DNA from: Candidatus Woesearchaeota archaeon B3_Woes
GTDB lineage: Archaea > Nanobdellota > Nanobdellia > Woesearchaeales > B3-WOES
Length of the DNA: 64,000 nt
NCBI GenBank assembly: GCA_005222965.1
Contig: NJBG01000001.1
Location: 435,061 to 499,060 of the forward strand
Reading direction: 5' to 3'
Of the stretch, positions 21,949-47,200 are shown piece by piece. The translations under genes and the position numbers were made by a program. How positions within the stretch are numbered: the first letter of the stretch is position 1; each line of letters starts with the position of its first letter. The notes below the pieces were generated by a model. That model saw nothing but the letters and a program-made list of their open reading frames with translations. It did no database searches and had not been told where the DNA came from.

Positions 21949-23451
21949 TTAAGTTAATGGTATTTCTCCCTTCTCAAAAACAGAACCAGTGTATAATCTG
22001 GCCTCTTCAGTATCCATAGTTGATTTTCCTTCTTCAGTTATATAACTCCACCCATCATGATACGCTCTTATTACTATTAAAACATTATCTGGTTTACCTG
22101 AATTTCTTAAATACTCTCTTGTTTTCTTAAAATAGAGGGCTCCTGCATAAATTTGCATATTTATATGTTCTCTTTCTTTGCTAGTAGATATTTCATTGTA
22201 AAAATAACTAGTATTATACTCATTAAAAGAAATTTTATATTCTTTTAAAGAAGGATATTTTTTTATTAAATCAGGATAGATATCTTTAACAGCTTCATGA
22301 AACATTTGCATTGCTCCATGTGCTCTTCCATCATATGCCTTATTCAAATATATTCCAAAATCAGATTCGGTTCCAAGAAGACCTAGTATAACTTTATAAT
22401 TAACATCTAGTTCTTTTGCTATATCATAAACATCTTTTAAATATATGTTTCCCTTTATTTCATTATCATTTGGTATTGGTGTTTCTCTTGAAAATCCAAA
22501 TTTAATTTTTTCAAATGCCTCTTCAGGAATATAATAAGTTGTAATGCTTATATCTTTCCAATCTTTTTCAATAGTATTGGGTAAATCTTCTTCATTTTTC
22601 AAGAAATAAGCAAAGTTAATATGTACTTTTCTTTTTAATAATCCTTGAAGAGTATAAATCCACACTTCTTTATTACTTGTAACATCAAATAAAGCAAAAT
22701 CATTTTCAAATTCTATAGACCATTTCCTAGATAACCCTTTAAAATATATTTGTGCTTCAATACATTCTCTAATGTTTTCTACATCTTTACACCAATTAAA
22801 TATAGATTTTGCTTCATTAACAGATTCTTGGAAATCATCAAAATTCGCATCTATTGCAAAAGAAGGGACGAACAAATAACTTCCAATTTTATCATTATTT
22901 TGGTTTATTATATCTAAAGATATATCTTTTATTGGCTCTCCAATAATCTTGTCCTCTTTTATTGTTAAAAAATAATTATCATCTGAGAAAATATTCTCTT
23001 CTGGATAATTTGTAAGATAGTTATTTAACTCTTTTTCAAACAATAATTTAAAGTTTAAGACAAGTTCTGGGTAACACTTTTTATCTTTTGTCTCCCAAAT
23101 TGAATGTATTTTATATCTTCCGCAACCGGTTTCTTGAAAAAATCCTCCTCGCTGACCAAATAAATAAAGAGACTGATCAACAGAATTTTTAGCTGATTGA
23201 TCTATGTAAAACAAAATGTTTTCTGATTCCTGGGCAGTTTCTAAAAGTTTTAACTGAGTTAAACCAATATTTTTATTTTCTCCTTTGATTTCATTTAATT
23301 GTGAAAACAAGAATAGTAAAGCTAGAGGAACAACAACTAATGCTAACAAAACAGCAAAATCTAATCCTTTTTTATTTGTTTTAAGCTTGTTTAAAATATT
23401 AAAAATTCTATATTTCTCTGAATTTTTATTTTTTATAAATTGATAGTTCAA
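21949..23451 (-). CDS. Membrane-anchored protein with a C-terminal lytic transglycosylase (SLT/GH23 lysozyme-like) domain
   Basis: N-terminal TM. C-terminal region has the three SLT signature blocks in order: GTESDF (catalytic E-S), GAMQM (GLMQ motif) and RAYHDGWS (AYNAG motif). Confidence 0.5.
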   Translation of the reverse strand: MNYQFIKNKNSEKYRIFNILNKLKTNKKGLDFAVLLALVVVPLALLFLFSQLNEIKGENKNIGLTQLKLLETAQESENILFYIDQSAKNSVDQSLYLFGQRGGFFQETGCGRYKIHSIWETKDKKCYPELVLNFKLLFEKELNNYLTNYPEENIFSDDNYFLTIKEDKIIGEPIKDISLDIINQNNDKIGSYLFVPSFAIDANFDDFQESVNEAKSIFNWCKDVENIRECIEAQIYFKGLSRKWSIEFENDFALFDVTSNKEVWIYTLQGLLKRKVHINFAYFLKNEEDLPNTIEKDWKDISITTYYIPEEAFEKIKFGFSRETPIPNDNEIKGNIYLKDVYDIAKELDVNYKVILGLLGTESDFGIYLNKAYDGRAHGAMQMFHEAVKDIYPDLIKKYPSLKEYKISFNEYNTSYFYNEISTSKEREHINMQIYAGALYFKKTREYLRNSGKPDNVLIVIRAYHDGWSYITEEGKSTMDTEEARLYTGSVFEKGEIPLT

Positions 23452-23878
23452 CTTCTATTGCCTCCTTGGTATACGATGGAATTAGAGTGGATGCTTCATA
23501 CTTCTTCTTTCCTTTCAATATTCCTTGAATAAAATTGTAATTTCCGGCTTTTTTGGTATTTTCAATAGAAAGATGCCAAATATAATTCTCTCCATAATAA
23601 GCCACTATAAAAATAGTTATATGTTTTTCCAAAGTGTAATATTCATCAGAAAGATAAGATTGTATAATCATATCTGATATTGCTCCGTCTGCTGTTTCTG
23701 TTCTTAATAAATTTAATAATAAAATATTATTATCTATGTTTTTTGGAATCTCTTTTACAGCAAAATTAATAGGTTTAAATACTTCACCATAAGCACTATA
23801 AAAAACAGTTATCTCTAATGTGATAATAGCTATAGACAATAACAATGTTAAAGCCTTTCCTATCCCTTTTTTATCCAT
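23426..23878 (-). CDS. Hypothetical protein with a class III (pilin-like) signal peptide
   Basis: MDKKG|IGKALTLLLSIAIITL N-terminus. Confidence 0.4.
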   Translation of the reverse strand: MDKKGIGKALTLLLSIAIITLEITVFYSAYGEVFKPINFAVKEIPKNIDNNILLLNLLRTETADGAISDMIIQSYLSDEYYTLEKHITIFIVAYYGENYIWHLSIENTKKAGNYNFIQGILKGKKKYEASTLIPSYTKEAIEVELSIYKK

Positions 23879-23880
23879 TT

Positions 23881-24390
23881 TTAATCAGGATACCTCTTTT
23901 TATGATATGCTAAATCAATTGTAAGTTTTGCTTGTTTAAATTCTTCTTCTGATTTTACTAAAACATAATATTCATTTACAACTCTATAAAATATTTTAGA
24001 AATATCATATCCTTCTTCATTATAATAAATGATTGCGTCTTGTTTTGTTTCATCAAAATAATCTAATTGTATTTTAATTCCAAATTCTTTTCCTATATAA
24101 TTTTCTCTGTCAAGAGCTGTTTGTAATGTTTGTTCATTAAATTTCAAAGGATCCATAATTCCAGTAAATAATCTTCCATGAATATCATCTCCATAAGATA
24201 AGGCATTAATAACTCTCTTTGAATAAGTATAATATTCAAGATTATGTGTAGAAGTTGTTTGGGATAATAGGGTATTTGCAGATGTGGCTATAATAATCAC
24301 TACAACAGCTGTCAAAGGTAAATAAAAAAACCAGTAAATCAAATCTTCTGATTTCCCTCTCTTATTTTTCAAAAGTTTATTCATTTTCAA
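23881..24390 (-). CDS. Hypothetical N-terminally anchored protein (island member)
   Basis: MKMNKLLKNKRGKSEDLIYWFFYLPLTAVVVIIIA. Overlaps neighbouring genes at both ends. Confidence 0.35.
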   Translation of the reverse strand: MKMNKLLKNKRGKSEDLIYWFFYLPLTAVVVIIIATSANTLLSQTTSTHNLEYYTYSKRVINALSYGDDIHGRLFTGIMDPLKFNEQTLQTALDRENYIGKEFGIKIQLDYFDETKQDAIIYYNEEGYDISKIFYRVVNEYYVLVKSEEEFKQAKLTIDLAYHKKRYPD

Positions 24391-25255
24391 AATATTCTAT
24401 TAAACCTTTATTTATTATATTTACAACGTTTTTTGGATAGTTTCTTGGTAAAATTATGGATAATGATGCTTCTTTTCCTTTAAACTGGAAATAAGATTTA
24501 TCTATAGGAATTGTATTCACAGATTTGATATTGGTTGCAAAAAGATTTGAAATAGAGCAAGACAATGTCTTACTGGATTTACTGAGAGTATGATAAAATA
24601 TTTTAAGTTCATCATCATTTTGTGAGGTTTTTAATTCAATTACAATATCAATATTATTTCTTATTTCATCAAAAGTATCAGCAGAAATATAAAAGGAATC
24701 ATGATTTGGATGCTGTGCTTCTAATGAATCTGTTATTTCCCTTAAAGATTCATCTGAAACCAAAAGGAAAGATGTAGATTCTAGACTTTTTGTTGGTTTC
24801 AAACTTGGACAAACAACAATATTTTCATTAAATTCTATATTATCTTTATAATCAACTTCGAATTTATTTCCTTGTTTCAAAAAAGCGATTGAAACAGGAA
24901 ATTCTCCTAATGTTTTTAATAATAAAGGAGAATTTTTATCATCTATAAAATAACTAGATAAAGGTAATTTGTCTTTTTCATAAACATTTACTACATTATC
25001 ATTAAATTGGAAGCTGAAATTTTTTGTGTCTTGTGCATATTTTAAAAAAACAGTTCCGGGCATGCTTTGTATAGTGTCAATAATCAAAGAAAGATCTGTT
25101 GATAAAAATTGTTTATCAAAATCTGTTTTGTCTTTCATTGTTGATATCATAGAAAAAAGCAGAAGACCCACAACCCCCAAAGCCAATACTGTATGAAAAA
25201 CAGGATCCATCATAATACTCACCAAATCCCCTTTTTTAGAACGATATAATTTCAT
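24377..25255 (-). CDS. Hypothetical N-terminally anchored protein (island member)
   Basis: MKLYRSKKGDLVSIMMDPVFHTVLALGVVGLLLF. 292 aa. Confidence 0.35.
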   Translation of the reverse strand: MKLYRSKKGDLVSIMMDPVFHTVLALGVVGLLLFSMISTMKDKTDFDKQFLSTDLSLIIDTIQSMPGTVFLKYAQDTKNFSFQFNDNVVNVYEKDKLPLSSYFIDDKNSPLLLKTLGEFPVSIAFLKQGNKFEVDYKDNIEFNENIVVCPSLKPTKSLESTSFLLVSDESLREITDSLEAQHPNHDSFYISADTFDEIRNNIDIVIELKTSQNDDELKIFYHTLSKSSKTLSCSISNLFATNIKSVNTIPIDKSYFQFKGKEASLSIILPRNYPKNVVNIINKGLIEYFENE

Positions 25256-25257
25256 TT

Positions 25258-25776
25258 TTATTTGTTATATTTAGGAGAGATAACTGCAATATTGTTATTT
25301 TTTTCTAAATTAACTACACTTACTTTTTCTTGATTCTCTATTTTTGGGTTTGTTGTTTGAAAACAAATGTTTCCCTCAACACATTTGCCTTCTTTTATTT
25401 TTCCACCATTTTTAAATTTTTCACACTTGTCTGGATTGGTTCCATAATTATATTCATTTTTTTCTCCATCTATTTTAAATAGGCATAAACAAGTTAAATC
25501 GCTGCAACTAATGTTGGATTGAAGAGATTCTTTTTCAAAAGCAACCAGATAATAAAACTGCCCTTTGATAGGCACACCTATAGATTCTTTATCGCTTAAA
25601 TCATTAATTTCAGCAATAATTCTTTCAAAATCAAAATCTCTCTGGTCTTTTGCTTCAGTAGTATAAGATCTGTAAAACATAGTAAGAATAACTATCATCG
25701 AAACGGCTAAAATTAAATGAGGTACAAGTTTAACAACCTCTTCTAATGTAATCTCTCCTCTTTTATCATTAAACAT
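25258..25776 (-). CDS. Hypothetical Cys-rich protein with a class III-like signal anchor
   Basis: MFNDKRG|EITLEEVVKLVPHLILAVSMIVIL. Mature part has 8 Cys. Confidence 0.35.
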   Translation of the reverse strand: MFNDKRGEITLEEVVKLVPHLILAVSMIVILTMFYRSYTTEAKDQRDFDFERIIAEINDLSDKESIGVPIKGQFYYLVAFEKESLQSNISCSDLTCLCLFKIDGEKNEYNYGTNPDKCEKFKNGGKIKEGKCVEGNICFQTTNPKIENQEKVSVVNLEKNNNIAVISPKYNK

Positions 25777-25815: not shown

Positions 25816-26112
25816 TTATTCTTTTTGTTCTTTACAACAAATTTTATCTTTATTAACACATTTTAAACTTGATTCTGTTGTCCAACTATCCCCCAACACA
25901 CTACAATCAGAACCAGAAATACATCTTGTATCGCTAAACAATGCGCCACATGTATCTCCTTTAACAGCTTTTTCAGATTCATCTGCGATATTAGTATATT
26001 TTTCCATAGTATTTCCTATTTGGGTTCTAAAAACAAATATAAGAATAACCAAAACAACTAAAGAAAGTATTGCCATAACTAATGTTTGCATTGCAATGCC
26101 TTTTTTATTCAT
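25816..26112 (-). CDS. Small 6-Cys pilin-like protein (class III signal peptide), paralog of the 32334-33121 trio
   Basis: Start re-assigned to the internal Met at 26112: MNKKG|IAMQTLVMAILSLVVLVIL. Mature domain Cys pattern C…C…C…C…CC ends KICCKEQKE. Confidence 0.5.
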   Translation of the reverse strand: MNKKGIAMQTLVMAILSLVVLVILIFVFRTQIGNTMEKYTNIADESEKAVKGDTCGALFSDTRCISGSDCSVLGDSWTTESSLKCVNKDKICCKEQKE

Positions 26113-26155: not shown

Positions 26156-27424
26156 ATGAACAATTTTAAATATATCATTAATATTCTTTCTTACATTATG
26201 GGATTAGGACAATTAACAGAAAAAGTTTTTCAAGAATCAAGAATCGGAAGAAATCTAATGATATTAGGATTGGGTGGATTAAGTTTAATTGTTTCTCAAG
26301 CTTTAGCACGCAATACAAAAAAACAAGAAACACAAGATAAAGAAGTAATTGAATGGGTCTTACCTCAAGAAACATATAAAGTTGTTTTTCCTTTTAAAGA
26401 ACCAGAAACAAAATTTGAAAAAAGGATTTACAATCAATTGGGTGATGATGTCAAATATATGATGTGGAAAAGAAAATCAACTGATTTTAAAATGGCTTTG
26501 GCTTTATCAAATGTTATTAATAATCCAGGAATTAGTGCTTTTCAGAATGTAATAGATAAATTGATTGAACAGAGAAATCATACGGAATATGTTCCTCTAG
26601 AAGATATGGAAAAATATAACATAACTAAATCTAATTACCAAGGCACAATAGATCCTACTAGAACATTACCCCAGCCAGTTTTTTATCAACAAACCTGGTC
26701 TGGAGATATAATTCTTTTAGAAAAGGGAGATTTATTGCTACCTGAAACAAGCATTAGTGTTCCTCCAGGGATGGTTTATGTAAAAGGGGGCATTTTTGAT
26801 ATGGGGGATGTGATGGAAGATAATGAAATTTATGACGAAATACCTCTTCATAAAGAAGAAGTGGGAGATTTTTATATTGACATATATGAAGTGACTCAAG
26901 CCGAATTTACAAGAGTGATGGGATATATACCAGGCATAGGAAATAGTGAAGAATTACCAGCGGAAGGAATTCATTGGCCAGATGCAGATGAGTATTGTAG
27001 AAGAGTAGGCAAAAGATTACCAACAGAAGCAGAATGGGAATATGCTGCAAGAGAAAGAGGGGAAAAAGTTCGTTTTGGTAATGGTAAAAATATTATTGGT
27101 ATGGAAGACGCAAATTTTTGTTATGTTGGCCAATTTAGTAGGTTTTATCCTTATTATATCCCTAGTCGACATAGTGACCTGCGTTTTGGAGTAGTACCAG
27201 TTGGAAGTTATCCCCCAAATGCACTTGGTCTTTATGATATGACAGGTAATGTAGAGGAATGGGTATCGGATTGGTTTTATAATAGGTTCAATAAAAAAGT
27301 TTATGTATTAAAAGGCGGTTCTTATACTGGAAATCCTGCTGAAGTACGTGCAACATCTCATATGAGGGATACCGTAGTGGGAGTTAATTCTGAAGCAGGG
27401 TGCCGTTGTGTAAAAGACAGATAA
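26156..27424 (+). CDS. Secreted FGE-sulfatase (SUMF1/formylglycine-generating enzyme) domain protein
   Basis: Sec-type signal (RNLMILGLGGLSLIVSQALA|RN). FGE-domain blocks LPTEAEWEYAAR, GLYDMTGNVEEWVSDW, LKGGSY and terminal GCRCV. The true start may be an internal Met (26198). Confidence 0.7.
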   Translation: MNNFKYIINILSYIMGLGQLTEKVFQESRIGRNLMILGLGGLSLIVSQALARNTKKQETQDKEVIEWVLPQETYKVVFPFKEPETKFEKRIYNQLGDDVKYMMWKRKSTDFKMALALSNVINNPGISAFQNVIDKLIEQRNHTEYVPLEDMEKYNITKSNYQGTIDPTRTLPQPVFYQQTWSGDIILLEKGDLLLPETSISVPPGMVYVKGGIFDMGDVMEDNEIYDEIPLHKEEVGDFYIDIYEVTQAEFTRVMGYIPGIGNSEELPAEGIHWPDADEYCRRVGKRLPTEAEWEYAARERGEKVRFGNGKNIIGMEDANFCYVGQFSRFYPYYIPSRHSDLRFGVVPVGSYPPNALGLYDMTGNVEEWVSDWFYNRFNKKVYVLKGGSYTGNPAEVRATSHMRDTVVGVNSEAGCRCVKDR

Positions 27425-27472: not shown

Positions 27473-28126
27473 ATGGTTAATAAAAAAAGAGGTATTGTAT
27501 TAATTCTTGTTATTTTCGTAATTATAATTGTTGCATTATTAATAACATTACCTAAAAAAATAGTATATAGTAAAGATCCTCAAGATTGGATTGAGGAAGA
27601 AGGTATAACAAATATAATTGATGTTAAACATGCTACAGAAGGGAATGGCTATTTTAATACAAACAATCAGCAATATAAATATTTACAAGTTAATACTGCT
27701 TTTGGTTATGATGGTTTTTACAAAGGAGCATTCTTCAAAAACAAATATATTGATTCTTCTAATCAATTACATATAGAGATAACGCCTAACTTAAATCCTA
27801 ACGATGGTATTTTACAAGGAATTATTGTTGAAAAATTTGAAAACGGAAAACCAATATCTTATATATTCCTTGATGAAGATTGGAGAAAACAATTTAATGA
27901 TAATATAAATATTGTTTGGGGCCAAACCTATCAAAACTTTAAGAAATTTGAGTTTAATCAAATATCAACAGGAGTTTATATGGATAAAGTAGAAGATGAT
28001 TCTGATAGATTTTTTGAAGACTTTAACATACATGTTGGTGGTGTTTTGGTTGGAGATTTGAAAGTTTTTGGAGAAAACATATCTCAAATTGAAGAAGAAA
28101 ACGTTACACTAATCGCTATACACTAA
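27473..28126 (+). CDS. Hypothetical protein with an N-terminal class III-like signal anchor
   Basis: MVNKKRG|IVLILVIFVIIIVALLITL. 217 aa. Confidence 0.35.
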   Translation: MVNKKRGIVLILVIFVIIIVALLITLPKKIVYSKDPQDWIEEEGITNIIDVKHATEGNGYFNTNNQQYKYLQVNTAFGYDGFYKGAFFKNKYIDSSNQLHIEITPNLNPNDGILQGIIVEKFENGKPISYIFLDEDWRKQFNDNINIVWGQTYQNFKKFEFNQISTGVYMDKVEDDSDRFFEDFNIHVGGVLVGDLKVFGENISQIEEENVTLIAIH

Positions 28127-31063: not shown

Positions 31064-31223
31064 TTTAAAAAATATTTCTTAAAAATTGAACTTTATCTAA
31101 TAAAAAATCTTTTGATTTAAAAGAAATGTAAATAAGTGCGAGTATAACGAATAAACCTATTATTAATCCAACTATAACAGACCAACCTGGTAATTCTCCT
31201 TTCTTAAAAAGATCTTTTCTCAT
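31056..31223 (-). CDS. Unannotated small ORF (~55 aa) with a pilin-like N-terminus
   Basis: Minus-strand translation gives MRKDLFKKG|ELPGWSVIVGLIIGLFVILALIYISFKSKDF… Its stop abuts the start of the 975-aa gene. Not in the ORF track (short). Confidence 0.25.
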
Positions 31224-32173: not shown

Positions 32174-32289
32174 GCAAACCCCTTCTCAACAACTTTTTTT
32201 AATATGTTCCAAAGCATGAGAAATACAACTAAAGCTATTATTAAAAAAATAAGGAAAACTAGTGCTTTTTTTGTACCTCCTTTTTTCAT
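32170..32289 (-). CDS. Unannotated tiny ORF (39 aa) with a pilin-like N-terminus
   Basis: MKKGG|TKKALVFLIFLIIALVVFLMLWNILKKVVEKGFA. Its stop overlaps the next start (ATGA). Confidence 0.25.
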   Translation of the reverse strand: MKKGGTKKALVFLIFLIIALVVFLMLWNILKKVVEKGFA

Positions 32290-32333: not shown

Positions 32334-32570
32334 CTAGCTCCCCGCAGCCTTACCTATAGGAATACAGCAATCATCACATTCTTGTGTTTTTATAGTTGCT
32401 CCATAAGAACAAGGAGTTTTACACTCTCCTCCTTTTTCTGTACAACTGTCTAAACTAGTCTTAACGTCTCCAATTTTACCTGAAAACACAAAAAGAATAA
32501 CAGCCAGAACAATTAAAGCTAAAATTGATATAACAATCGTTTGTAAACTTAGTCCTTGTGCTTTTTTCAT
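32334..32570 (-). CDS. Small 6-Cys pilin-like protein (tandem paralog 1 of 3)
   Basis: MKKA|QGLSLQTIVISILALIVLAVILFVF. Mature about 50 aa with C…C…C…C…CC. Confidence 0.5.
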   Translation of the reverse strand: MKKAQGLSLQTIVISILALIVLAVILFVFSGKIGDVKTSLDSCTEKGGECKTPCSYGATIKTQECDDCCIPIGKAAGS

Positions 32571-32824: not shown

Positions 32825-32839
32825 CTTAAAAAGAAAAAA

Positions 32840-38800: not shown

Positions 38801-41739
38801 ACATTTCCATAAGGCGGGTAAACCTCTTGGCTATGTGTTGTTTCAAATCTTTCACTATCATATCCAGGAAAGGATCCTTCATCTTCATGACCACTATAAG
38901 TACATATTGTTTTATCATCTGTAGTAATTTTTAAACTTGTAAAAGGAGGATCAGTAGCAACAAGCGCCGGATCTGCTCCTGTAAAAGGGACATATGTTGG
39001 AGGAGATGTATCAACAGATAAATCAAATTCTTTAGATGTGATTGAATTATAATAAACATCTTTACAATTCACATACAAAATATGTTGTATGCCTTCGTAT
39101 ATTCCTGAGATATGTTCGCTATGAACCACACTATTTGTCGTATCAAGTTGTAATGAATGGGCATAATCTGCTGCTTCATTATCTAAAGCATACTTACATA
39201 TTGCAGTGTTATCTGTTTTTAATTCCAATGTAAAGGATGAAGTTGGTGAAACTCCATATGAAGGTTTAACTAATGTTATATCTAAAGATGTTGAATCAGC
39301 ATTTACTTCAAAACTTCCATACTCAAGTATGTTATTTTTTGCATAATCACTAGCATCTACTTCTAAATTATATACTCCATCTATAAATTGCATAGAATCT
39401 ATTTGAAATACTTTGTTGTCTGTTGTTTTAAAATTGGATGTTATGTCTATGCCATCCATCAAAACCTGGTTTAACAAAGAGGGTTCATCAAATACTAAAA
39501 TTACAGTAGGGGTAGAAGAGTTAACTGTTTCATCATTTGGTTGAATACTAAGACTAGGAGATTTTGTGTCTACAACAAAAGTAAACTGTTTGTTAGAGCT
39601 CATCTTCCTTCCAAATCTGTTTTCAGCATTAAATTCATATTTATAGGTGTCATCTGGAAGATAAGACATATCAGTCAGAATATCTCCTATCTTTATTTCA
39701 TGATTTTGCTGGGAAGATGTCATTAAAGTCAACAAAATTGGATTAGTTGCTCTGTCTTCTAACCGATGATATGAGAGCCTTGCATTATTAGAAAAATTAA
39801 TTTGTATTATTGGTAATGGATTGTTTGTATAATATACACTATTTATGTAGTTTGAATCTTTAATATAATAAGCATAAGCATTGGGTCTAATGTCTGTTGA
39901 TGCTGCAAAAGACATATCCTTAACCAAACCTATGTTTTTTGAGGGATCTTCTGAATAATATTTAAGAATAGTATTTCCAGGTATTAAAGTGAGTGAATCT
40001 GATTCACAAGAACCTGCACAAAGTTTTAATGTTCCTTCATACTCTCCAACAGCTAAATTTCTATAAGTTGTTATTTTAAAATCTCCTGTCCTAGGCATAC
40101 AGGCACTTGAAGTATCTACACAATAATATGTTTTATAATCTACTGATCCTTTTGGTACAGCAGATTCTTCTATTTTAATTTTATCAATAATCTCTATGTT
40201 AAAGCCGTTTACAACCCCATCATTATCTTTTATTGTAGTAATTGTTGTTTCTGGTCTAAAATAATCTTTTTCACAATCTGGGTCTAAACTTCCTTCACAA
40301 TCTGGTAATGCAATCCCGTCTGCATCTTTTACACAATTTCCTTCTGTCCATCTACAAACATTGATTCCACAAGAATCTCCGCTAACATCGACAAATTCAT
40401 TAAGATTGTTTAATGATGCTGGAGAAGAAATAACACTACAATCTAATTGTGTGGTATATACCGGACAGCCCACGCTTCCACAGCTATTGCATGTTCCTCC
40501 TGCCTCAAAACAAGGATATTTATCAGTTGATAATGCCATTAACCTTTCTTCTGTAAAAATATCAAAAACAGAATTATATGCGCCATAATTAATATTCTCC
40601 ATACCATCAGATCCTTCTTGGTAACAGAATTGACAATTATCTGACTCATCATCAACACATACACCAATACCTAGTTCATCATAAATTGGTTCCCACCTGC
40701 AGGATGTTGCTGGATCCTGGACAGCCCCAACCATGCAATTGTCTTTTTCGCATGTTTCTTGAGATTTATAATCATAACAACCCATTGCGTCTCCCCCGCA
40801 ATTATAACAAGCATCGACATTTGTTGAAGACCTATCTAAAAAACAGTATTTATAATTAGATTCTGTTCCTTCACAAAGTTCTCGAGTTAAATAATACATT
40901 CCAAATGGATTTCCAAGGTCTTCATTGCAATCTGTCTCTTCAATACAAGTTCCACTTACGCATATATAATTTTCCTGACAAGCTGTTTCGCTATTAAGAG
41001 AATTGTGAATACTGCAAGAATATGGTTCATTACCAACACAAAATGTTGAAGGGGTAGTCAATCCTTCGCATTCAGAATCTCCAGAATAAATATTTACAGC
41101 TCCACTATCTTTTGAACTTTGGTATTGATAATTTCCTTGAATAACATACCTATATGTTGTTTCCCAGCTTATAGATATATCTGTATATGTTTTCTGGGTT
41201 GTTTCGCCTATTATTGAAAATTCAGTACAATCAGATCCGCTACATCTCATTATTGCATAATTAACTGCTGGACAATTATAATTATCCTCCCATGTAAGAG
41301 TTATTTGTCTAAATCCTCTATCCTCTCCTCTTATGATGTTGGTTGGTTTTATATTAAGATCAGGATCACTGCATCCCTCCCCTCCTGCCGCTAGAGAGCA
41401 AGATCCAACACAACATTGTTGACTTGAAGAGCATGCCCCCCCTTCTGGATTTGAAGAACAAGCTTCATAATCAGAACATGAACCAGGTCTACAAGTATTA
41501 CAAAGAGATAATCCACATGTTGTTGCGCATTCTTCATCACTACCTGCCGCCCCTTCAACTATTGTTCCACTACTCCACGCACATAGTTGAGCAATCTCTC
41601 CATTAGGGATCTGATAAGCTGTTTTTGGTAAACAACAACATGAAGGATAAGAAGCACCTTTAACAAAAAATACACTAAAGAGAAGAGTAGTTAAAAAAAT
41701 TAATCCTATTATTATTGTTATTTTTAATTTTTTGTTCAT
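35803..41739 (-). CDS. Giant (1978 aa) Cys-rich surface protein: signal peptide, Cys-rich/FN3-like and beta-sandwich modules, tandem CGDG…EQCD repeats, thrombospondin type-3 Ca-binding repeats, C-terminal TM anchor and polybasic cytoplasmic tail
   Basis: N-terminal signal MNKKLKITIIIGLIFLTTLLFSVFFVKG. At least five tandem modules of the form CGDG(x5-6)GEQCDGENKG(x)T(x)C(x)DF(x)DFTGG(x)L(x)C(x3)C(x)FDTS(x)CTGGEGS. TSP3-like DSDGDGILNQDDNCP…DMDGDGLGDACDDDIDGDGLSNEFE…DSDGDGILDGDEDADNDGLSNFEED…DTDGDGFVDKKE. TM VWWTFFWIVFLIILISVGVYFGY. About 150-aa K/R-rich tail. Confidence 0.7.
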   Translation of the reverse strand: MNKKLKITIIIGLIFLTTLLFSVFFVKGASYPSCCCLPKTAYQIPNGEIAQLCAWSSGTIVEGAAGSDEECATTCGLSLCNTCRPGSCSDYEACSSNPEGGACSSSQQCCVGSCSLAAGGEGCSDPDLNIKPTNIIRGEDRGFRQITLTWEDNYNCPAVNYAIMRCSGSDCTEFSIIGETTQKTYTDISISWETTYRYVIQGNYQYQSSKDSGAVNIYSGDSECEGLTTPSTFCVGNEPYSCSIHNSLNSETACQENYICVSGTCIEETDCNEDLGNPFGMYYLTRELCEGTESNYKYCFLDRSSTNVDACYNCGGDAMGCYDYKSQETCEKDNCMVGAVQDPATSCRWEPIYDELGIGVCVDDESDNCQFCYQEGSDGMENINYGAYNSVFDIFTEERLMALSTDKYPCFEAGGTCNSCGSVGCPVYTTQLDCSVISSPASLNNLNEFVDVSGDSCGINVCRWTEGNCVKDADGIALPDCEGSLDPDCEKDYFRPETTITTIKDNDGVVNGFNIEIIDKIKIEESAVPKGSVDYKTYYCVDTSSACMPRTGDFKITTYRNLAVGEYEGTLKLCAGSCESDSLTLIPGNTILKYYSEDPSKNIGLVKDMSFAASTDIRPNAYAYYIKDSNYINSVYYTNNPLPIIQINFSNNARLSYHRLEDRATNPILLTLMTSSQQNHEIKIGDILTDMSYLPDDTYKYEFNAENRFGRKMSSNKQFTFVVDTKSPSLSIQPNDETVNSSTPTVILVFDEPSLLNQVLMDGIDITSNFKTTDNKVFQIDSMQFIDGVYNLEVDASDYAKNNILEYGSFEVNADSTSLDITLVKPSYGVSPTSSFTLELKTDNTAICKYALDNEAADYAHSLQLDTTNSVVHSEHISGIYEGIQHILYVNCKDVYYNSITSKEFDLSVDTSPPTYVPFTGADPALVATDPPFTSLKITTDDKTICTYSGHEDEGSFPGYDSERFETTHSQEVYPPYGNVMRTYMVECMNMAELISTMPISFKVSDSAPLSVVSMTNPYFTTNEIDLRAKVNLDTNCKYTTDQSSPISTWLPFTKQTTLDHKATISVPGNGDYRYYVKCYDSRQISWLPSIPYEIGFSVDVTPPKMNYVDDSSNEPNPEITWKHTRLRVKWLGEDLDTRIAQYYYRLKEFGATDSFVFDWLDETTEDEWIVVDDINLADKQKYQFDVKPENAYGLEGDVMSSDGITIDISAKPAHCDDSIKNEDETGVDCGGSCAPCGPDSGYCNNNIIDAGEQCDGDAEWAEDLNECSDFYFTGGILTCASDCVFDISLCTGGEGSYCGDGIVDASAGEQCDGENKGETDCRDFDDFTGGTLICDNCELKTILCEGGTSGYCGDGEINTGEQCDGENKGDTTCFDIADFTGGILGCNNDCIFDTSSCTGGEGSYCGDGVIDINTGEQCEGDEIGDKECSSFDEFTGGELTCNDCIFDTSSCTGGEGSECGDGAADSTEECDIGDLRNATCSSRGFYEGELACNNDCTFDENECKGGTEGECGNDEINAGEACDGWDLGDFNDCNDYDSDFINGSLDCDSDCEYDLSMCQIEQPQCNENMDCVSGFCIEGYCADPTCYDKVENSIESDIDCGGNCPKCENGEECENKDSNCKSGYCNVVTGKCSPPDKCHNNILDSGETGVDCGGSCEGCEEGDFCDIDDDCLSDLRCIGGICKSDSDGDGILNQDDNCPYESNLDQLDMDGDGLGDACDDDIDGDGLSNEFEQMYNLDPYSPDSDGDGILDGDEDADNDGLSNFEEDRAGTSPLNSDTDGDGFVDKKEIEKGTDPLDANSKPGSVWWTFFWIVFLIILISVGVYFGYPMYVDYMRKQGKKPPKTPTQTHTITSVRKPHPSIIKPIKIDKQLKNLIAKSKKKREEKRRGVFSSFETGTSKPQERRRGLQRRGRETKRIVKPSKPTKEWVSLSKVQKKTKGDALSQLKGITKGKKSSGDVFETLKEIKEGTKKKPKGKK
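37190..38040. repeat. Imperfect tandem DNA repeats (~165 bp period, ~5 copies) encoding the CGDG…EQCD Cys-rich modules of the giant surface protein
   Basis: Near-identical strings recur at about 37355, 37520 and 37850 (…caccacagtaacttccttctcc[ga]cctgtaca[tc][ga]aactt[ga]tatcaaa[tc]a[tc]acaatc…). Confidence 0.7.
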
Positions 41740-41740
41740 T

Positions 41741-43105
41741 CTAACATCCTGTACCTGTTATAGTAAAATCAATATATTGCCAATCCCTTGATTTGTCAAA
41801 TCCAGGAACACACGAATATGGTGAATAATGATTATCTGAAACACAAATTTCTACTGTAAACGACCCACCAATCCCATTTCCTACAGGCGGATAAGATTCG
41901 CAATATTGGCTTATAATAGTTTTACTAAAAGAAGTGTTTCTTGCTAAACCTAAATCTAAAGAGGTGTAGTATACAGTTATGCTCTTTTCATCAGGGTCAG
42001 TAACATTAACCATATCACTAAAATAAGTTTCATTTAAAACTTCTCCAACCCCTATTGTTTTAGGAGAAGTTATATTTTCTAAAACAGGGTATCTGTTTTG
42101 TCTTGCAAATTGAAAGATAAAAGGGGTGTTTGAAAAATTATCTTCTATTTTGATGATATTATCCTCAAAAGGGGATATCTCATTACCGCCTTGTCCATGT
42201 CTCAAAATAGTAAGAATCATATTGCCATCAATTAATCCCAATGAATCTATTGTAACGTCATAACTTTCATTATTTTTATCAAAATCAAGCAAAGTATTTG
42301 CTATTTCATGTAATTTTTTTAATCTAACTTTTGTGTCATAATAAAATTCATCCACTCTTATCTGCTTTTTTGTTGTCGGATCAACAATATTCAAAGGGTA
42401 GTTTATTATTGTAATTATTGTTTCTTCGGTTGTATTAACACTAACACTTAAAGTTCCATTTAATTCTATCTTAAACCCTTCATCTTCAAAAATTGATAAG
42501 TCAATGCAATTTTCAAACGTGTTGTTGATATAAACCTTTAATTGATTATACATGCTTCCTCCTCCATCTAATTCTGGTAAATAAGTCATATCCCCAAAAC
42601 ACCCTTTTTTTAGTGTACAATTCCTTTCACTAGGCTTTGGAAAACCCATCCAAGGATACTCTCCTCCTTTAAAATTTCCTACTAAAACTTCAGAAATATT
42701 GTTTTTGCAAGTTATACCAGATCCACCTAAACAATTATAACTTTCGCTTGATGACCTTTTCAAACCATAACTTACATTAAGTTTTGTATCTCCTTGTACA
42801 AGAGTAAGAGAAAAATTAGCAGGTCTAGGAATATCAATGCCTCCTTGATAATCATATATTACTCCCCCTTGGTTTCCTAATAATTTCATTCCGTCTTTTG
42901 CAACCTTTCCCAAACACGCTGTTACATAAGATCTTATGCTGGCTATGTCAAAAGTTGTTTCTTGATGTACTAATGCTTCTTTTCTTGTTTTGTGTCCTGT
43001 TGTTTGCTTTCCAGCATAAAAAACAAGCCCCATAACAATCAAAAAAACAAAACCAATTAACATAAAGAAGGTTAATTGTCCTTTTTTTGAAAATTTTTCT
43101 TTCAT
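41741..43105 (-). CDS. Class III signal peptide protein with a large extracellular domain unusually dense in N-glycosylation sequons
   Basis: MKEKFSKKG|QLTFFMLIGFVFLIVMGLVF. At least 12 N-x-S/T sequons (NVS, NIS, NCT, NNT, NGT, NTT, NES, NFS, NIT, NET, NVT, NTS). Overlaps the upstream gene by 4 nt. Confidence 0.5.
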   Translation of the reverse strand: MKEKFSKKGQLTFFMLIGFVFLIVMGLVFYAGKQTTGHKTRKEALVHQETTFDIASIRSYVTACLGKVAKDGMKLLGNQGGVIYDYQGGIDIPRPANFSLTLVQGDTKLNVSYGLKRSSSESYNCLGGSGITCKNNISEVLVGNFKGGEYPWMGFPKPSERNCTLKKGCFGDMTYLPELDGGGSMYNQLKVYINNTFENCIDLSIFEDEGFKIELNGTLSVSVNTTEETIITIINYPLNIVDPTTKKQIRVDEFYYDTKVRLKKLHEIANTLLDFDKNNESYDVTIDSLGLIDGNMILTILRHGQGGNEISPFEDNIIKIEDNFSNTPFIFQFARQNRYPVLENITSPKTIGVGEVLNETYFSDMVNVTDPDEKSITVYYTSLDLGLARNTSFSKTIISQYCESYPPVGNGIGGSFTVEICVSDNHYSPYSCVPGFDKSRDWQYIDFTITGTGC

Positions 43106-46100
43106 TTTATTCTTAATTTGGGTCCTAAATCGTTTAATAGCTCATAATAACCTTGGGTTAAACCGCCAGTAAAAACATAATTAACATTTCCTTGTTTTAC
43201 ACAATCAAAAGGCACTAAAACAGGATTAGCAACTTTATAATTTTCAATCATAACACATAGATTTGTATTAAAATTAGTATATGTTGCAGACATGTATTTT
43301 TTATTCTTTATTTCTTCTGTTATGATATAAATTGATTTTTCTCCTTTTTTGTGTAAATATATCTTATTAAAATTACTAGTTTCATTAACAAATCCATAAT
43401 CATATGAAAGGCGTATATTTTGTAAATAATAAAGTGTTGGCTCAAATAAATTTCTTATATAAGCTGCTTCTCCTCCTGTCAGAACATCACTTATAGATGG
43501 CTCGTTTCTAGTATAAATTACTGATTTGATTTTATTATTATAATATACTCCACCACCACAAACTTCAAAAGTACTTGAATCCAATACGCTGCTGCAATCC
43601 CTGTTAGTTCCGCCTATTGCTTCTAATATAGAGTAAGAAGATGCGTCTACGTCATGGTTAATAGAAGCTCCAATTATGACTTTATTTTCATCATATTTCA
43701 AAACACATAAATTATTAATACAAGGGACTATGTTTCCTTTTCCAATATTACATGTATATCCTCCTGTTTGGAAATAATTTACAGTAGGATACCATTCATT
43801 TATAGAATACCCATAAAAGTTTAATACTTTATCATAGCTATCACAAAATAAGCTATATTCGTTTGAACTACTTCCAATATCCATTAATTGTCTTATTAAT
43901 AAAGCGGTTCTTGATGTCCATTCTCCATTTCTGCAATAATGGTCTCCGATAAATTCTCCATCATTTATGCATCTGACTTCATTAAGAGGGTAATGAGTAA
44001 CGCTTGTTGCGTCCTCAACAGTTTTATCAAAACTTAGTTCATCTGGGTTTACAAGACATTGGGTATCATCTAAACAATAACCACTATCTGTTTTATCCCA
44101 TGTATATGCTTCTTTTAAACTTCCTACACATTTCCCTCCTATAACCTTCATCTTCGGTTTACTGCAACAAGCATAAGAAGCATATGCTCCTTTTGTAAAA
44201 TATTCTTCTGGGTCATCTCCGCAACAAGCTCCATCTCCTGCATCACCTGTTAAACCCCAAGGTGGATGTCCTAAGGCCTCTTCTTCTGAAATATTTACTA
44301 TCGCCTTACAAACACCAAGATCAGTATCAGATCCATACCATTGCCCCATAGCACACAGGTGAACATCTGGAAATTCTCCATGCAAATCACCACTTGCAAC
44401 ACATTCACCATCTATAACACAATAAAGTTCGTCTGGACAACACGCTCTATTAAAAGGTGGAGTTGTTTGATCAAAAGTTGGATTTGTTTGATATTCGTCT
44501 GTACAATCACTCTCTCCGTCATCATTAACTCCGCAGGTTCTATTCCTAATTGGAGATAGATACCCTTCAGGAGAACAATCTAAATCAGAACAATCAATAG
44601 TACCATCACAATCATTATCATATCCATCAAAACAAAAATCTTCTTCTATTGGTATTCGGATGTTTATTGGACCTTCATCAATTCCACTTATAACACCATC
44701 AAGCCAATCTAATTTAGGAGTATTTGGATCACAATCACAAAAAGGACTTGATGATAAACCTGGATTTATATAATAAGGGTTGAAATTCATAGTGGAATCG
44801 ATGCTTTCAGATGTGCCATTATCCATACAATCCAAATATGTAGAACCTAGATGACAAGATTCAGCATGATAAAGATTAGAAGGTTGAATACCATATCCAT
44901 CTTCATCATCATCAATACAAGAAGTAACACATCTTCCTTCTCCATCACAATGTTTTCCATCTCCTTTTTCTTCATTAGGAGTAAACTCATTACAATCCCA
45001 TATTGCTGTATAATACGGATATTCCTCTCCAGCCACAAGATAAGAATAATCTTCTGCCTCTTCTTCTGAAAAGATCTTGGGATCATCTACAGAATATTCT
45101 CCAGCAGGCAAATTTTGAGCGAGACATCCTCCTCTACAAGTATAATGTTGACAAACAGGATCAGGGTCGCAACTTGCTACGTCTTTTTGCCTGGTGGCTT
45201 TTTCAACGTCTTCTGGTTCTAATTCTTTTGTTTCATTAATAAAATCTCCATCACAATACATGTCGCCAGCCCACGGGTCTAATGGTTGACAACGTTTTTC
45301 TCCTTCTCTATTATATTGAACACAATGTCCTTTGCCATCTCCTTCTGCGTCCCATGCAAAACATTCTTCATCTTCGCTACATTCATCATTAATTGCTAAT
45401 CCTCCTTTAACAGAGCAACAAACTTCATACTTATAATCAGAATCATCAAAACAACTTGCAAAATGAGCATTATTTACATATTCTCCATCAATCTCTCCTG
45501 CTAAAGAAAACATACAAAAATATGAATTCTCCCCGTTTGAATCTTCTAAAGCGTCACATTCCTGGTCTGTATTTGTAACCTGACAATCCAAGTCAACATC
45601 TAAATCTGTTGTTAAACAAACTTCATAAGAATAATCCCCTCTCCAATAAGTAGACCCATGTGCATTATCCCTATCTGATAAAGAAATTATATGTCCATCA
45701 AGACCACAAGCAGTATAGTCCTCATTCCTGCTTATAGATTCAAAACCAGAAATATTACAACATATATTATTTTTATTGCTCCCAAAATAAGAATCACTAC
45801 CAGATGCATGAGCATTATAAGGCGGATCTGATAAACTAATAATAAAATGTTCACCAGTTTCACAATTATCTCTTACAACACATCTGCCAGCGGCTTTTGA
45901 ACCATCTTTAGTATACTCACAACCTTTTCCATTTATCTTATCCACCTCCCCATCACAATCATTATCATATCCATCACAGCTCTTTTCTGACTCTTGATAC
46001 TTGTCATTGTGTTGATAATAAGTTGAAGAATCACATCCTGGCCACACACCATTAGTACATGTTTCCTGTGCTCCAACACAAACGCCGTTTAAAGCTTTCG

Positions 46101-46458
46101 AATCAGTCTTACTACAAAGTCTTTGATCTCCAGAAGAACAAACAGAAAGTTTACAGTAAGGCGCTTTTTCGGGACAGACCGCATCAGTTAATTCGTTACA
46201 GTATTTTATTTGTATACAGTAAGTAGAGGCTACCTCTTCGCCGAGTGTTGTCTTACAAACCTCAGTATCACTTGACCCACAAAAAAAGGAGGGAGCTGAA
46301 GGAGCACAACCATCAGGACAACCACCAGGCTCCATTGTATGATAGGAACAGTAGAGTGGGTAGTCACCTACACAATCTCCAACAACACCCTCACCAACAA
46401 CCACAAAACTAACCAAAACAACAAAAATCAAAAAGATTGGTTTTAATTTGGGTTTCAT
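43102..46458 (-). CDS. Giant (1118 aa) secreted Cys-rich protein with MopE-type (CDGxDNDCDG) putative metal-binding motifs
   Basis: Sec signal MKPKLKPIFLIFVVLVSFVVVGEG. CDGYDNDCDGEVDK and CFDGYDNDCDGTIDC match the PF11617-type Cu-binding motif. More than 90 Cys. No C-terminal TM. Confidence 0.65.
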   Translation of the reverse strand: MKPKLKPIFLIFVVLVSFVVVGEGVVGDCVGDYPLYCSYHTMEPGGCPDGCAPSAPSFFCGSSDTEVCKTTLGEEVASTYCIQIKYCNELTDAVCPEKAPYCKLSVCSSGDQRLCSKTDSKALNGVCVGAQETCTNGVWPGCDSSTYYQHNDKYQESEKSCDGYDNDCDGEVDKINGKGCEYTKDGSKAAGRCVVRDNCETGEHFIISLSDPPYNAHASGSDSYFGSNKNNICCNISGFESISRNEDYTACGLDGHIISLSDRDNAHGSTYWRGDYSYEVCLTTDLDVDLDCQVTNTDQECDALEDSNGENSYFCMFSLAGEIDGEYVNNAHFASCFDDSDYKYEVCCSVKGGLAINDECSEDEECFAWDAEGDGKGHCVQYNREGEKRCQPLDPWAGDMYCDGDFINETKELEPEDVEKATRQKDVASCDPDPVCQHYTCRGGCLAQNLPAGEYSVDDPKIFSEEEAEDYSYLVAGEEYPYYTAIWDCNEFTPNEEKGDGKHCDGEGRCVTSCIDDDEDGYGIQPSNLYHAESCHLGSTYLDCMDNGTSESIDSTMNFNPYYINPGLSSSPFCDCDPNTPKLDWLDGVISGIDEGPINIRIPIEEDFCFDGYDNDCDGTIDCSDLDCSPEGYLSPIRNRTCGVNDDGESDCTDEYQTNPTFDQTTPPFNRACCPDELYCVIDGECVASGDLHGEFPDVHLCAMGQWYGSDTDLGVCKAIVNISEEEALGHPPWGLTGDAGDGACCGDDPEEYFTKGAYASYACCSKPKMKVIGGKCVGSLKEAYTWDKTDSGYCLDDTQCLVNPDELSFDKTVEDATSVTHYPLNEVRCINDGEFIGDHYCRNGEWTSRTALLIRQLMDIGSSSNEYSLFCDSYDKVLNFYGYSINEWYPTVNYFQTGGYTCNIGKGNIVPCINNLCVLKYDENKVIIGASINHDVDASSYSILEAIGGTNRDCSSVLDSSTFEVCGGGVYYNNKIKSVIYTRNEPSISDVLTGGEAAYIRNLFEPTLYYLQNIRLSYDYGFVNETSNFNKIYLHKKGEKSIYIITEEIKNKKYMSATYTNFNTNLCVMIENYKVANPVLVPFDCVKQGNVNYVFTGGLTQGYYELLNDLGPKLRIK

Positions 46459-46514
46459 TTTTTATTGATTGCTTGTTTTTTGTTTATTGTTCCTTTCTCA
46501 TTTCCTATAAAAGA

Positions 46515-47057
46515 TTAATCAACACAAGTCGCACCACATTTTATAGCTCCGTCGTAGCCTCCATCATTTTGGGCAAGAGTTTTAAGAGTCCATTCTCCAT
46601 TAAACTCACCATCAACCTGGCATGAATATTCCTCATTGTTCATATTCTCTACTTCGTCGAGTCCAACATACGATAAAAAACAAAACTTATGAGTTCCTAA
46701 TTCGTCTGTTGTCTCCTTTGTCACATCTACGGCGAAATCTCCTTTGTATGCAGTTACCCATTCTCCAGTTGTGGATTTTACTGCTCCTCCGAAATCAAGA
46801 GTCCCTTCAACATCTAAATCCCCTGCAATATTTAAATTACCCACCAAACCCCCAGTAATCTCTAAATCATCATCTATTTTTACAGAATTTGCATCTGTTC
46901 TACTTGTTATTGTGTTTGTATATACTGGATCATGATAAGCACCGCCTGTTGGAAAACCATCAGCTATTACTAACCCAATCAATAATAAACAAACCAAGCC
47001 AGTTAAATAATACAAATGCTTTTTCTTAATGTTAATTTCAATTTTCATTTTATACAC
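46515..47057 (-). CDS. Secreted or anchored protein with short repetitive G-rich beta-strand motifs, first gene of the island operon
   Basis: N-terminal anchor YLTGLVCLLLIGLVIADG. Repeats ITGGLVGNLNIAGDLDVEGTLDFGG. 180 aa. Confidence 0.4.
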   Translation of the reverse strand: MYKMKIEINIKKKHLYYLTGLVCLLLIGLVIADGFPTGGAYHDPVYTNTITSRTDANSVKIDDDLEITGGLVGNLNIAGDLDVEGTLDFGGAVKSTTGEWVTAYKGDFAVDVTKETTDELGTHKFCFLSYVGLDEVENMNNEEYSCQVDGEFNGEWTLKTLAQNDGGYDGAIKCGATCVD

Positions 47058-47062
47058 CTCAT

Positions 47063-47200
47063 TTATTTTCTATTATCTTTTTTGATTTTTTCACCTAAAG
47101 CCTCATTAATATATTTGATTAAAGTTTTATTTTGCAGAAGAGCGTTTAATTTGGCTTTTTTATGCAACTCGTTCTCAATTTCAATATTAATTCGAGTCAT
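47063..47200 (-). CDS. Unannotated small ribbon-helix-helix (CopG/Arc-like) putative transcription regulator
   Basis: 45 aa: MTRINIEIENELHKKAKLNALLQNKTLIKYINEALGEKIKKDNRK. Predicted beta-strand (RINIEIE) followed by two helices. Lies directly upstream of the island operon. Not in the ORF track. Confidence 0.35.
   Translation of the reverse strand: MTRINIEIENELHKKAKLNALLQNKTLIKYINEALGEKIKKDNRK

Follow-up and report, generated by a model that had tools for sequence, protein, structure and literature searches.

A conserved Woesearchaeales gene cluster encoding class III-like signal proteins, giant cysteine-rich proteins and murein hydrolase modules

Gene content of the cluster

This study concerns a 64,000-nucleotide stretch of the genome of Candidatus Woesearchaeota archaeon B3_Woes (contig NJBG01000001.1, positions 435,061 to 499,060; the whole stretch is referred to here as the window), and in particular a cluster of 24 genes at 21949-47200, located between the genes for RPA (20881-21879) and RNase P p30 (47331-47909), in which a long series of proteins with pilin-like N-termini is encoded together with giant cysteine-rich proteins. 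The Woesearchaeota are tiny and probably host-dependent archaea which, like their relatives, are found ubiquitously in sediments, groundwater and lakes. None of these archaea has been brought into culture, and the Woesearchaeales belong to the most abundant archaea still uncultured. The window has a low GC content (around 30%) and is archaeal in its genes, encoding RadA, RadB, RPA, RNase P p30 and SpoIIM, with PolD, Orc1/Cdc6 and MCM additionally identified by eye. Two of the cluster proteins are 100% identical to the B3_Woes hypothetical proteins CEE44_02525 and CEE44_02450.

An earlier note on this DNA, made from the sequence alone, had described a near-total minus-strand orientation and frequent ATGA overlaps between stop and start codons, and both features were found. 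Twenty-two of the 24 genes lie on the minus strand, the remaining two (g7 and g8) being on the plus strand; genes described below are on the minus strand unless stated otherwise. The ATGA overlaps number five (g21/g20, g19/g18, g13/g12, g11/g10 and a 39-amino-acid (aa) open reading frame (ORF) with g11), a single ATGAATAA overlap occurs at g4/g3, and several further intergenic gaps measure 1-2 nt. The cluster is headed by a 45-aa RHH protein (47063-47200), also recognized by the earlier note as a small regulator; this putative role is consistent with its Pfam matches to the RHH part of HicB (1.7e-4) and to ParD (3.7e-3) and with a PDB match to ParD (0.044). In one relative a 46-aa gene occupies the same position.

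For comparison, 80 loci were fetched from one-genome-per-species archaeal assemblies and their ORFs were clustered into families. The core pilin-like proteins are encoded by g18 (166 aa, 35306-35806, present in 53 loci), g17 (348 aa, 34250-35296, the most conserved marker of the cluster), g16 (156 aa, 33777-34247) and g15 (161 aa, 33188-33673, present in 68 loci). The first three carry the N-terminal motif KKS↓Q, in which the arrow marks the putative cleavage site, and g15 carries KKA↓QMEIMGL. Further upstream lies g20 (454 aa, KKG↓Q, 41741-43105), which matches its family (f7) at a hidden Markov model (HMM) E-value of 5.7e-75, and whose N-terminal module has a paralogue in g1 at the far end of the cluster, g1 matching a member of the g20 family at 5.6e-5.

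Directly after the core are three tandem paralogues of 78-90 aa, g14, g13 and g12 (32334-33112), all beginning MKKA↓QGLSLN. A fourth small cysteine-rich pilin-like protein, g6 (MNKKG↓IAMQ, 25816-26112), clusters with the same family and heads the tail module of the cluster; relatives have a small pilin at the equivalent position. All four proteins combine a hydrophobic helix of about 30 residues (QGLSLNxIIIAAIALxVLV) with a six-cysteine knob. This small-pilin family has 111 members in 52 loci, with one to three tandem copies in each, and both the architecture and the tandem copies would suit g12-g14 as candidate major shaft subunits of a filament.

The 160-bp gap between g12 and g11 contains an unannotated 39-aa class III-like mini-protein (32170-32289; MKKGGTKKA↓LVFLIF..., ORF start MKKGGTKKALVFLIF...), which was found only by reading the gap, as the ORF lists comprised proteins of at least 40 aa. 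It is followed by g11 (317 aa, KKA↓QGD, 31220-32173), a pilin-like protein with 10 cysteines whose family counts 65 members in 49 loci, often as two tandem copies, and then by g10 (31065-31223), a second class III-like mini-protein, of 52 aa (KKG↓ELPGW). Relatives, too, have mini-ORFs (40-55 aa) sharing these features at the position of the 39-aa ORF and after g11, those after g11 being about 50 aa long. Both g14 and the 39-aa ORF are preceded by candidate TATA-like boxes. The next two genes form a pair comprising g9 (975 aa, 28136-31063), with a class III-like N-terminus (KRG↓MIGW), and g8 (217 aa, KRG↓IVL, 27473-28126, plus strand), which matches its family HMM at 3.1e-55. Partial homologues of g9 (994-1490 aa) adjoin g8 homologues in four loci, so that g8 is the partner of g9 in relatives as well.

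Two giant cysteine-rich proteins accompany the pilin-like series. The larger, g19 (35803-41739), has 1978 aa and 118 cysteines and has homologues in 56 of the 80 loci. It was described by the earlier note as an anchored adhesin-like protein, and the presence of a Sec signal, a transmembrane (TM) helix at residues 1802-1834 and a basic cytoplasmic tail agrees with a type I membrane protein of this kind. It consists of cysteine-rich and Ig-like regions, with cysteine repeats and TSP3 calcium-binding repeats, and is translationally coupled to g18. The second, g21 (43102-46458), has 1118 aa, 76 cysteines and a Sec-type signal without any further TM segment, and is thus secreted as had been proposed; its MopE motif, in contrast, scored only 23.3 bits against a cut-off of 27. 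The N-terminal region of g21 is variable, while its C-terminal 330 aa or so form a conserved domain (family f12; 14 loci, HMM 1.6e-72), and the protein has no Pfam or PDB match.

The tail module continues from g6 with g5 (172 aa, KRG↓E, family f16, HMM 7.2e-12; 25258-25776) and g4 (292 aa, 24377-25255), the latter a pilin-like protein with a degenerate Amidase_3-like domain that matches the family f11/f14 HMMs at 1e-22. In the g4 family, members at four loci (L015, L016, L031 and L036) have the motifs DPGHGG, H and E, at which the window copy reads CPSL, K and I. With the zinc ligands and the catalytic glutamate lost and no Pfam match to Amidase_3, g4 is predicted to be catalytically dead, and it may only bind murein. 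Then follow g3 (167 aa, KRG↓K, 23881-24384), a class III-like protein of family f17/f9 (HMM 3.9e-17 and 2.2e-12), and g2 (150 aa, KKG↓I, 23426-23878), which matches none of the relatives' families; a pilin-like gene of about 170 aa stands at that position in relatives.

The last gene, g1 (500 aa, KKG↓LDF, 21949-23451), encodes a modular pilin-like protein matching the family f13, f33 and f34 HMMs at 4.6e-43, 7.2e-35 and 4.1e-26, with a conserved N-terminal module (residues 26-240, approximately) and a divergent SLT-like C-terminus (about residues 341-487, bases 21991-22431). An SLT-like transglycosylase had been claimed here by the earlier note. Neither the whole protein nor its C-terminal 171 aa matched Pfam, and phmmer against PDB gave no match either; what supports the claim is an alignment with the SLT domains of relatives, in which TESDF, AHGAMQM and RAYHDG of g1 fall against QESNF, AAGLMQL and AAYNWG, although the match is weak (hhalign E = 4.6e-4, probability 33%). 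The C-terminus is probably a divergent SLT domain. At least five close relatives of g1 were found among the candidates listed in the homologue search. Throughout the g1 family the pilin-like N-terminal module is constant and the C-terminus variable, being SLT, VanY/Peptidase_M15 or 3D in relatives, and family members from relatives match PF01464 (SLT) at 1.1e-29 and 6.3e-29.

Murein hydrolase domains were also found at this end of related clusters. Among 139 proteins encoded downstream of the core there were five with SLT, four with Amidase_3 (best 1.4e-16), three with VanY/M15, two with 3D and one with Muramidase, and a Peptidase_M23 gene was found at the hydrolase end of one locus. SLT modules are encoded, for example, at L044 and L054, Amidase_3 modules at L031 and L015, and a VanY module at L083. 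The hydrolase proteins inspected begin with MNKKA↓, MKNKKA↓, MNKKG↓ or MKKRG↓.

Class III-like signals and conservation of the cluster

The earlier note had counted about 18 pilin-like proteins. A strict rule was applied here, under which [KR][GAS] must occur within 45 residues and be followed by 20 uncharged residues, at least 12 of them strongly hydrophobic. It flagged 15 of 23 cluster ORFs, compared with two of the 42 ORFs in the rest of the window (Fisher p = 2e-7), and both of the matches outside the cluster were unconvincing. Three further proteins (g2, g5 and g15) fit the motif by eye and the 39-aa ORF fits as well, so that the total is 19 rather than 18. The array itself, each member having a short basic leader, [KR]-[G/A/S] and about 20 hydrophobic residues, is as first described, and the N-terminal strings quoted in the note are all correct. 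Nine of the window proteins have Q at +1.

The same rule, applied over the related loci, matched 448 of 696 in-cluster proteins compared with 28 of 312 outside (p = 1e-66). The motif was also examined without presupposing it, by recording for each family the residue that follows the last K or R before the hydrophobic segment. The g15 family had G, A or S at -1 and Q at +1 in all 69 of its members, and the g20 family in 14 of 16 at both sites. For the small pilins the corresponding values were 99/106 and 77/106, and for the g18 family 44/52 and 39/52. In the g17 family the small residue at -1 was present in 77 of 78 proteins and Q at +1 was not conserved. The two Sec-type control families, by comparison, had G, A or S at -1 in only two of 35 (g19 family) and none of nine proteins (f19 family). 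The motif therefore differs from that of a generic membrane anchor.

EppA-dependent pilins of Methanococcus are processed at RAQI, KGQV, KGQL and KGQI, and EppA requires the +1 glutamine (PMC4371748). Because the motif is enriched in the cluster, conserved by family and equal to the EppA processing site, the earlier identification of class III (prepilin-type) signals with a K-K-[A/S]↓Q flavour stands. The possibility that K-K-[A/S]↓Q is peculiar to B3_Woes was considered and rejected, Q at +1 being family-wide in g15, g16, g18, g20 and the small pilins; it is the S/A-Q of g17 that is lineage-specific, most relatives carrying G at that site. The bacterial-type prepilin motif G-[FM]-T-L-I-E was found at none of the N-termini of 1446 ORFs in the related loci.

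Public gene models of g17 and of several of its homologues (P0001-P0006, P0052, P0054 and P0055) start at an internal methionine. The NCBI model of the B3_Woes g17 has 334 aa compared with 348 aa here, and has lost the K-K-S↓Q signal together with part of the hydrophobic helix. Such starts hide the class III signals from automatic annotation. An annotation blind spot is thus exposed, as these families have no Pfam or NCBIfam model and public models often delete the signal peptide.

Homologues of g17 were found in 74 protein clusters and, within the one-genome-per-species collection, in 233 stretches; a set of 1.84 billion proteins contained 2137 representatives at 50% identity, all of them unannotated. 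The named records are nearly all from Woesearchaeota, Nanoarchaeota or Nanoarchaeia, and g17 can be used as a marker gene for the cluster. The cluster is also present in OZ246410.1 and JACJVW010000001.1, which represent near-complete relatives. The gene order recurs in both genome and metagenome loci. Its upstream half runs from an optional g21-like gene through g20, the giant g19, g18, g17, g16 and g15 to one to three small pilins, a mini-ORF, g11 and a further mini-ORF, after which the downstream half continues with f10 or g9, a small pilin, f8/f16, g4, f9/f17, a gene of about 170 aa, a terminal hydrolase and RPA. A metagenome scan seeded with a narrow small-pilin alignment re-found only the same cluster.

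These results identify a vertically inherited, syntenic cluster of the Woesearchaeales. The label of "island" given to the region in the earlier note is misleading, since its GC content is the same as that of the flanks, and since the cluster is core and syntenic in relatives, with the same housekeeping neighbours in many Woesearchaeales.

Several minor observations concern the related loci. In many distant relatives (for example L015, L036, L044, L095, L099 and L112) an RPA-like gene directly follows the terminal hydrolase, as it does in the window, and the junction at which the surface-structure cluster meets the replication gene is unusually stable. The sole small-pilin homologue outside the cluster context was found at 9950-10282 of L161 (Ga0257125_1000017), at a contig end, where it follows genes resembling the glycine cleavage system (by eye) and a gene for a 553-aa protein, with no ATPase nearby. 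A close syntenic relative, on a 292,190-bp contig of JGI (Joint Genome Institute) sample 3300072015, has within its cluster an oppositely oriented gene of 612 aa for which a Pfam match to T2SSG, the bacterial major pseudopilin domain, had been precomputed. Record titles of contigs bearing this archaeal cluster name a 'Candidatus Aminicenantes bacterium', an 'uncultured Dehalococcoidales bacterium' or, in very many cases, an 'uncultured Methanosarcinales archaeon'; the inconsistent titles (L039, JAFCCF010000001.1; L040, CAYFEZ010000037.1; and many CA*-prefixed loci in L005-L084) probably reflect mis-binned or mislabelled metagenome-assembled genomes (MAGs).

Assembly machinery, proposed function and alternative explanations

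The window lacks T2SSE, T2SSF and A24 peptidase, in agreement with the earlier note, which saw no PilB/FlaI ATPase, PilC/FlaJ platform or PibD/FlaK peptidase, and no secretion-type ATPase occurs among the recurrent families or the Walker A proteins of the genome and metagenome loci. Separation of the cluster from any assembly machinery is accordingly a conserved feature, which need not mean absence. The note had left a choice between machinery encoded elsewhere and a structurally novel apparatus. Since one study (PMC11606122) detected flaB/H/I/J/K in the majority of its Woesearchaeota MAGs, and since pilA1-6 of Haloferax are unlinked to pilB/pilC and so provide a precedent for unlinked pilin genes, the missing local ATPase is most simply explained by machinery elsewhere in the genome.

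Structures predicted with AlphaFold2 for two core proteins have the lollipop architecture of type IV pilins, with an N-terminal helix of about 55 residues and a globular domain. The g17 model (mean predicted local distance difference test score, pLDDT, 93; predicted template modelling score, pTM, 0.86) comprises a helix at residues 3-57, then a beta domain and, at the C-terminus, a bundle of four helices, and that of g16 (pLDDT 88.5) a helix at residues 2-58 followed by six strands. No solved pilin was clearly matched by the predicted globular parts, nor was a fold match obtained for g17, and both a pilin fold and filament formation remain putative. Profile searches of PDB returned nothing meaningful for g17, g1, g20, the C-terminal domain of g21 or the small pilins. 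The composition of the cluster was not recognized by the earlier note as a described system, and indeed no curated family covers these proteins and no paper in the searchable literature describes the genes as a pilin-like cluster.

The murein hydrolase modules carried by pilin-like proteins are the strongest functional clue. Murein is normally absent from Archaea (PMC8204110), and for this reason the modules point outward, to a bacterial partner, and to bacterial rather than archaeal hosts. Castelle et al. (2021) linked lytic-transglycosylase proteins of Woesearchaeota and Pacearchaeota to possible bacterial hosts (PMC8204110). Their study, which describes large murein-like lytic-transglycosylase proteins, shares with the present one the organisms, the kind of enzyme domain and the bacterial-host inference, and its 'Module 98' is made up of 51 lineage-specific, mostly uncharacterized families; its main text, by contrast, does not contain the word 'pili', and no class III signals, gene order or linked apparatus were found there.

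The cluster is, on balance, somewhat likely to encode a lineage-specific variant of the type IV filaments, characterized by an EppA-like Q at +1, giant adhesins and modular murein-directed pilin-like proteins, that serves attachment to bacterial hosts and breaching of their walls and is assembled by machinery encoded elsewhere. A host-attachment role, already proposed in the earlier note, fits the content of the cluster, namely pilin-like proteins, giant adhesins and hydrolase modules. Under this proposal about 19 precursors with class III signal peptides would be inserted into the membrane, and a prepilin peptidase would cut them after [KR]-[G/A/S], usually exposing an N-terminal glutamine, like that of the EppA-dependent Methanococcus pilins. 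An ATPase and a membrane platform encoded at another site would extract the N-terminal helices and pack them into a filament or short pseudopilus, of which g12-g14 and g6, the small six-cysteine proteins, may form the shaft, and the invariably co-ordered g18-g17-g16-g15, together with g20 and g11, the minor or tip subunits. Adhesion would be provided by the cysteine- and calcium-repeat giants, membrane-anchored g19 and secreted g21. The tail module may display murein-binding and murein-cutting modules on pilin-like stalks (the putatively dead Amidase_3-like domain of g4 and the SLT-like domain of g1), with which the cell would grip its bacterial host and locally open the peptidoglycan wall.

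Several results weigh against this proposal. Pfam and NCBIfam pilin and archaellin models (PF04021, PF07790, TIGR02537 and others) matched no protein of the window or of 150 relatives; for PF04021 (Class_IIIsignal, QxSxExxxL) a cut-off of E <= 0.1 gave no match in the window, nor did one of E <= 0.01 in the 150 relatives. In 160 loci, the roughly 10 kb to either side of the cluster contained no ATPase, platform or peptidase. [quoted passage not shown] The proteins g9, g1 and g20 (975, 500 and 454 aa) are far above ordinary pilin size, and two members are barely more than a TM helix. As g19 has its own C-terminal TM helix and cytoplasmic tail it is anchored to the cell, and so it cannot ride on the tip of a filament. 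The amidase module of the window is, judged by its residues, catalytically dead, and the SLT assignment is a weak profile match.

Known systems offer partial parallels. In the Epd pili of Methanococcus maripaludis the major pilin gene is unlinked to the ATPase. These pili resemble the present system in having a class III signal in which a basic residue is followed by a small one at -1 and by Q at +1 (PMC4371748), as well as several minor pilins and a small major pilin. They differ in that no sequence similarity was found, PF04021/DUF361 being without a match here, and in having about 5-9 subunits rather than about 19, whereas giant adhesins and murein hydrolase modules are added in the Woesearchaeales cluster. 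The Epd locus, moreover, holds its own peptidase, platform and ATPase, of which this cluster has none.

Bacterial type IVa pili and the machinery of type II secretion have minor-pilin operons with a tip adhesin, such as FimU-PilVWX-PilY1-PilE, and GspH-I-J-K plus GspG. The likeness here lies in a co-ordered series of four small pilin-like genes (g18-g17-g16-g15), of which one is enlarged, situated between a gene for a very large non-pilin adhesin and the major-subunit genes. No homology was detected, however; the signals are of archaeal type and without the bacterial G↓FTLIE, g19 has a TM anchor of its own, and there is a second, hydrolase-bearing module. Modular type IV pilins, exemplified by PilB and PilC of Streptococcus sanguinis, carry a functional module grafted onto a pilin moiety. 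In the same way g1 and g4 appear to combine a pilin-type N-terminus and scaffold with an enzyme module that is swapped among relatives, although the known modules are adhesive (vWA, lectin) while those observed here are murein hydrolases, are archaeal and are attached to a pilin moiety unrelated in sequence. Among host-dependent microorganisms, the Saccharibacteria (Patescibacteria) are ultrasmall episymbionts for which type IV pili are described as a means of host binding (PMC11623550); those pili are bacterial, have canonical pilins and full machinery and are experimentally shown, whereas the system proposed here is inferred.

A close variant of the filament proposal is a short pseudopilus or bindosome-like display platform, in which the processed class III proteins would form not a long pilus but an envelope-spanning stalk that presents or pushes out the hydrolases and the secreted cysteine-rich protein. 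This is possible but rather unlikely. It would account for the many diverse 'minor' subunits found alongside only small putative major subunits, and for enzymes bearing class III signals, in the manner of the sugar-binding proteins of the Sulfolobus bindosome, which are functional proteins with such signals (PMC3047682). The Sulfolobus Bas system likewise has non-filament proteins with class III signals and a surface assembly with small pilin-like helpers (PMC3047682); it differs in that its cargo consists of ABC-transporter sugar-binding proteins and in having BasEF, an ATPase and a membrane protein, in the locus. Marginal BasB matches were obtained for one g16 sequence (1.2e-3) and one relative (7.2e-4), and the 612-aa protein with the precomputed T2SSG match lies within a relative's cluster. 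The BasB matches, however, cover the N-terminal helix only and are far under the curated cut-off (18.8 bits compared with 230 for the match at 1.2e-3), no BasE/F-like ATPase or membrane pair is nearby, and a filament shaft is the more typical setting for three to four tandem small-pilin paralogues.

It is also conceivable, if improbable, that the N-termini are ordinary uncleaved type II signal anchors obeying the positive-inside rule, and that the proteins and the giant adhesins together make up a complex tethered to the membrane, with neither processing nor ATPase-driven polymerization. The absence of machinery near the cluster in the 160 loci, the lack of any pilin family or fold match, the heterogeneous protein sizes and the tiny members consisting essentially of one TM helix would all be expected in that case. 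A generic anchor, however, has no need of a small residue after the last K or R followed by Q, and it is the conservation of these -1 and +1 residues, down to about 30% identity and with the motif absent from Sec-type proteins, that disfavours such a complex. The predicted helices of about 55 residues would also extend well beyond a TM span.

A self-directed envelope machinery, in which hydrolases and pilin-like proteins remodel the cell's own envelope, for instance at division or during the passage of an appendage, is very unlikely. The locus is conserved, single-copy and chromosomal and adjoins housekeeping genes, as such a machinery might be, and bacterial secretion systems and pili often have their own dedicated lytic transglycosylase. 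Giant adhesin-like proteins rich in cysteine and TSP3 repeats would nevertheless be unexpected in housekeeping remodelling, and SLT, Amidase_3, VanY/M15, 3D and M23 would be without a substrate in an envelope from which, as in Archaea normally, murein is absent (PMC8204110). Finally, cargo of a mobile element or provirus, as might be suggested by a long single-stranded region dense in hypothetical proteins with a small RHH gene at one end, is effectively refuted by a GC content equal to that of the flanks, the RPA flank recurring in many relatives, the 233 stretches in species-representative genomes, the absence of any relative of the cluster among IMG/VR viral contigs, and the lack of an integrase or tRNA among the ORFs seen.

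Returning to the type IV filament variant, a wider claim may be made tentatively, as possible rather than probable: that the cluster encodes a nanomachine which descends from type IV filaments, is shared across the lineage and is dedicated to binding and perforating bacterial walls, its pilin-like subunits being tipped by interchangeable murein hydrolases and giant adhesins. If true, this would be an apparatus for cross-domain parasitism of an archaeon on bacteria, and its assembly might follow a non-canonical route, no ATPase ever being linked to the cluster. Whether DPANN archaea live on bacteria is still an open question (PMC8204110), and a concrete, conserved set of about 20 genes is now open to testing for filaments and for the type of host.

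Other genes of the cluster and of the window

Two cluster genes stand apart from those discussed above. The 177-aa protein g22 (46515-47048), between the RHH gene and g21, has an N-terminal signal or anchor and a cysteine-containing C-terminus, and its only match, to bactofilin, was sub-threshold. On the plus strand beside the g9/g8 pair, g7 (26156-27424) encodes a membrane-anchored or secreted protein of 422 aa; the secreted FGE-domain protein of the earlier note is upheld by a solid Pfam match to the FGE-sulfatase domain (1.6e-44). As none of the 80 related loci has a homologue, g7 appears to be a lineage-specific insertion, on the strand opposite to most of the cluster.

Elsewhere in the window, the block at 65-6913 contains three radical-SAM-like proteins with CxxxCxxC (1344-2477, 2526-3548 and 4561-5745), two mutually paralogous glycosyltransferase-like genes (65-1204 and 5750-6913) and an NAD-epimerase-like gene (3552-4556), all identified by eye, which may together form a pathway for a surface glycan or a modified sugar. 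On the minus strand at 12451-17311, a gene for a 232-aa protein precedes that for a family 2 glycosyltransferase (13143-14384; Pfam 1.2e-36), which is followed by two genes (14388-15842 and 15821-17311) whose products are large polytopic membrane proteins; none of the three other proteins matches Pfam. The cumulative GC skew is lowest at 60-62 kb, beside an Orc1/Cdc6-like gene (60206-61417) and an intergenic region of about 500 bp; with PolD and MCM close by, a possible replication origin may be placed at approximately 60200-62000.

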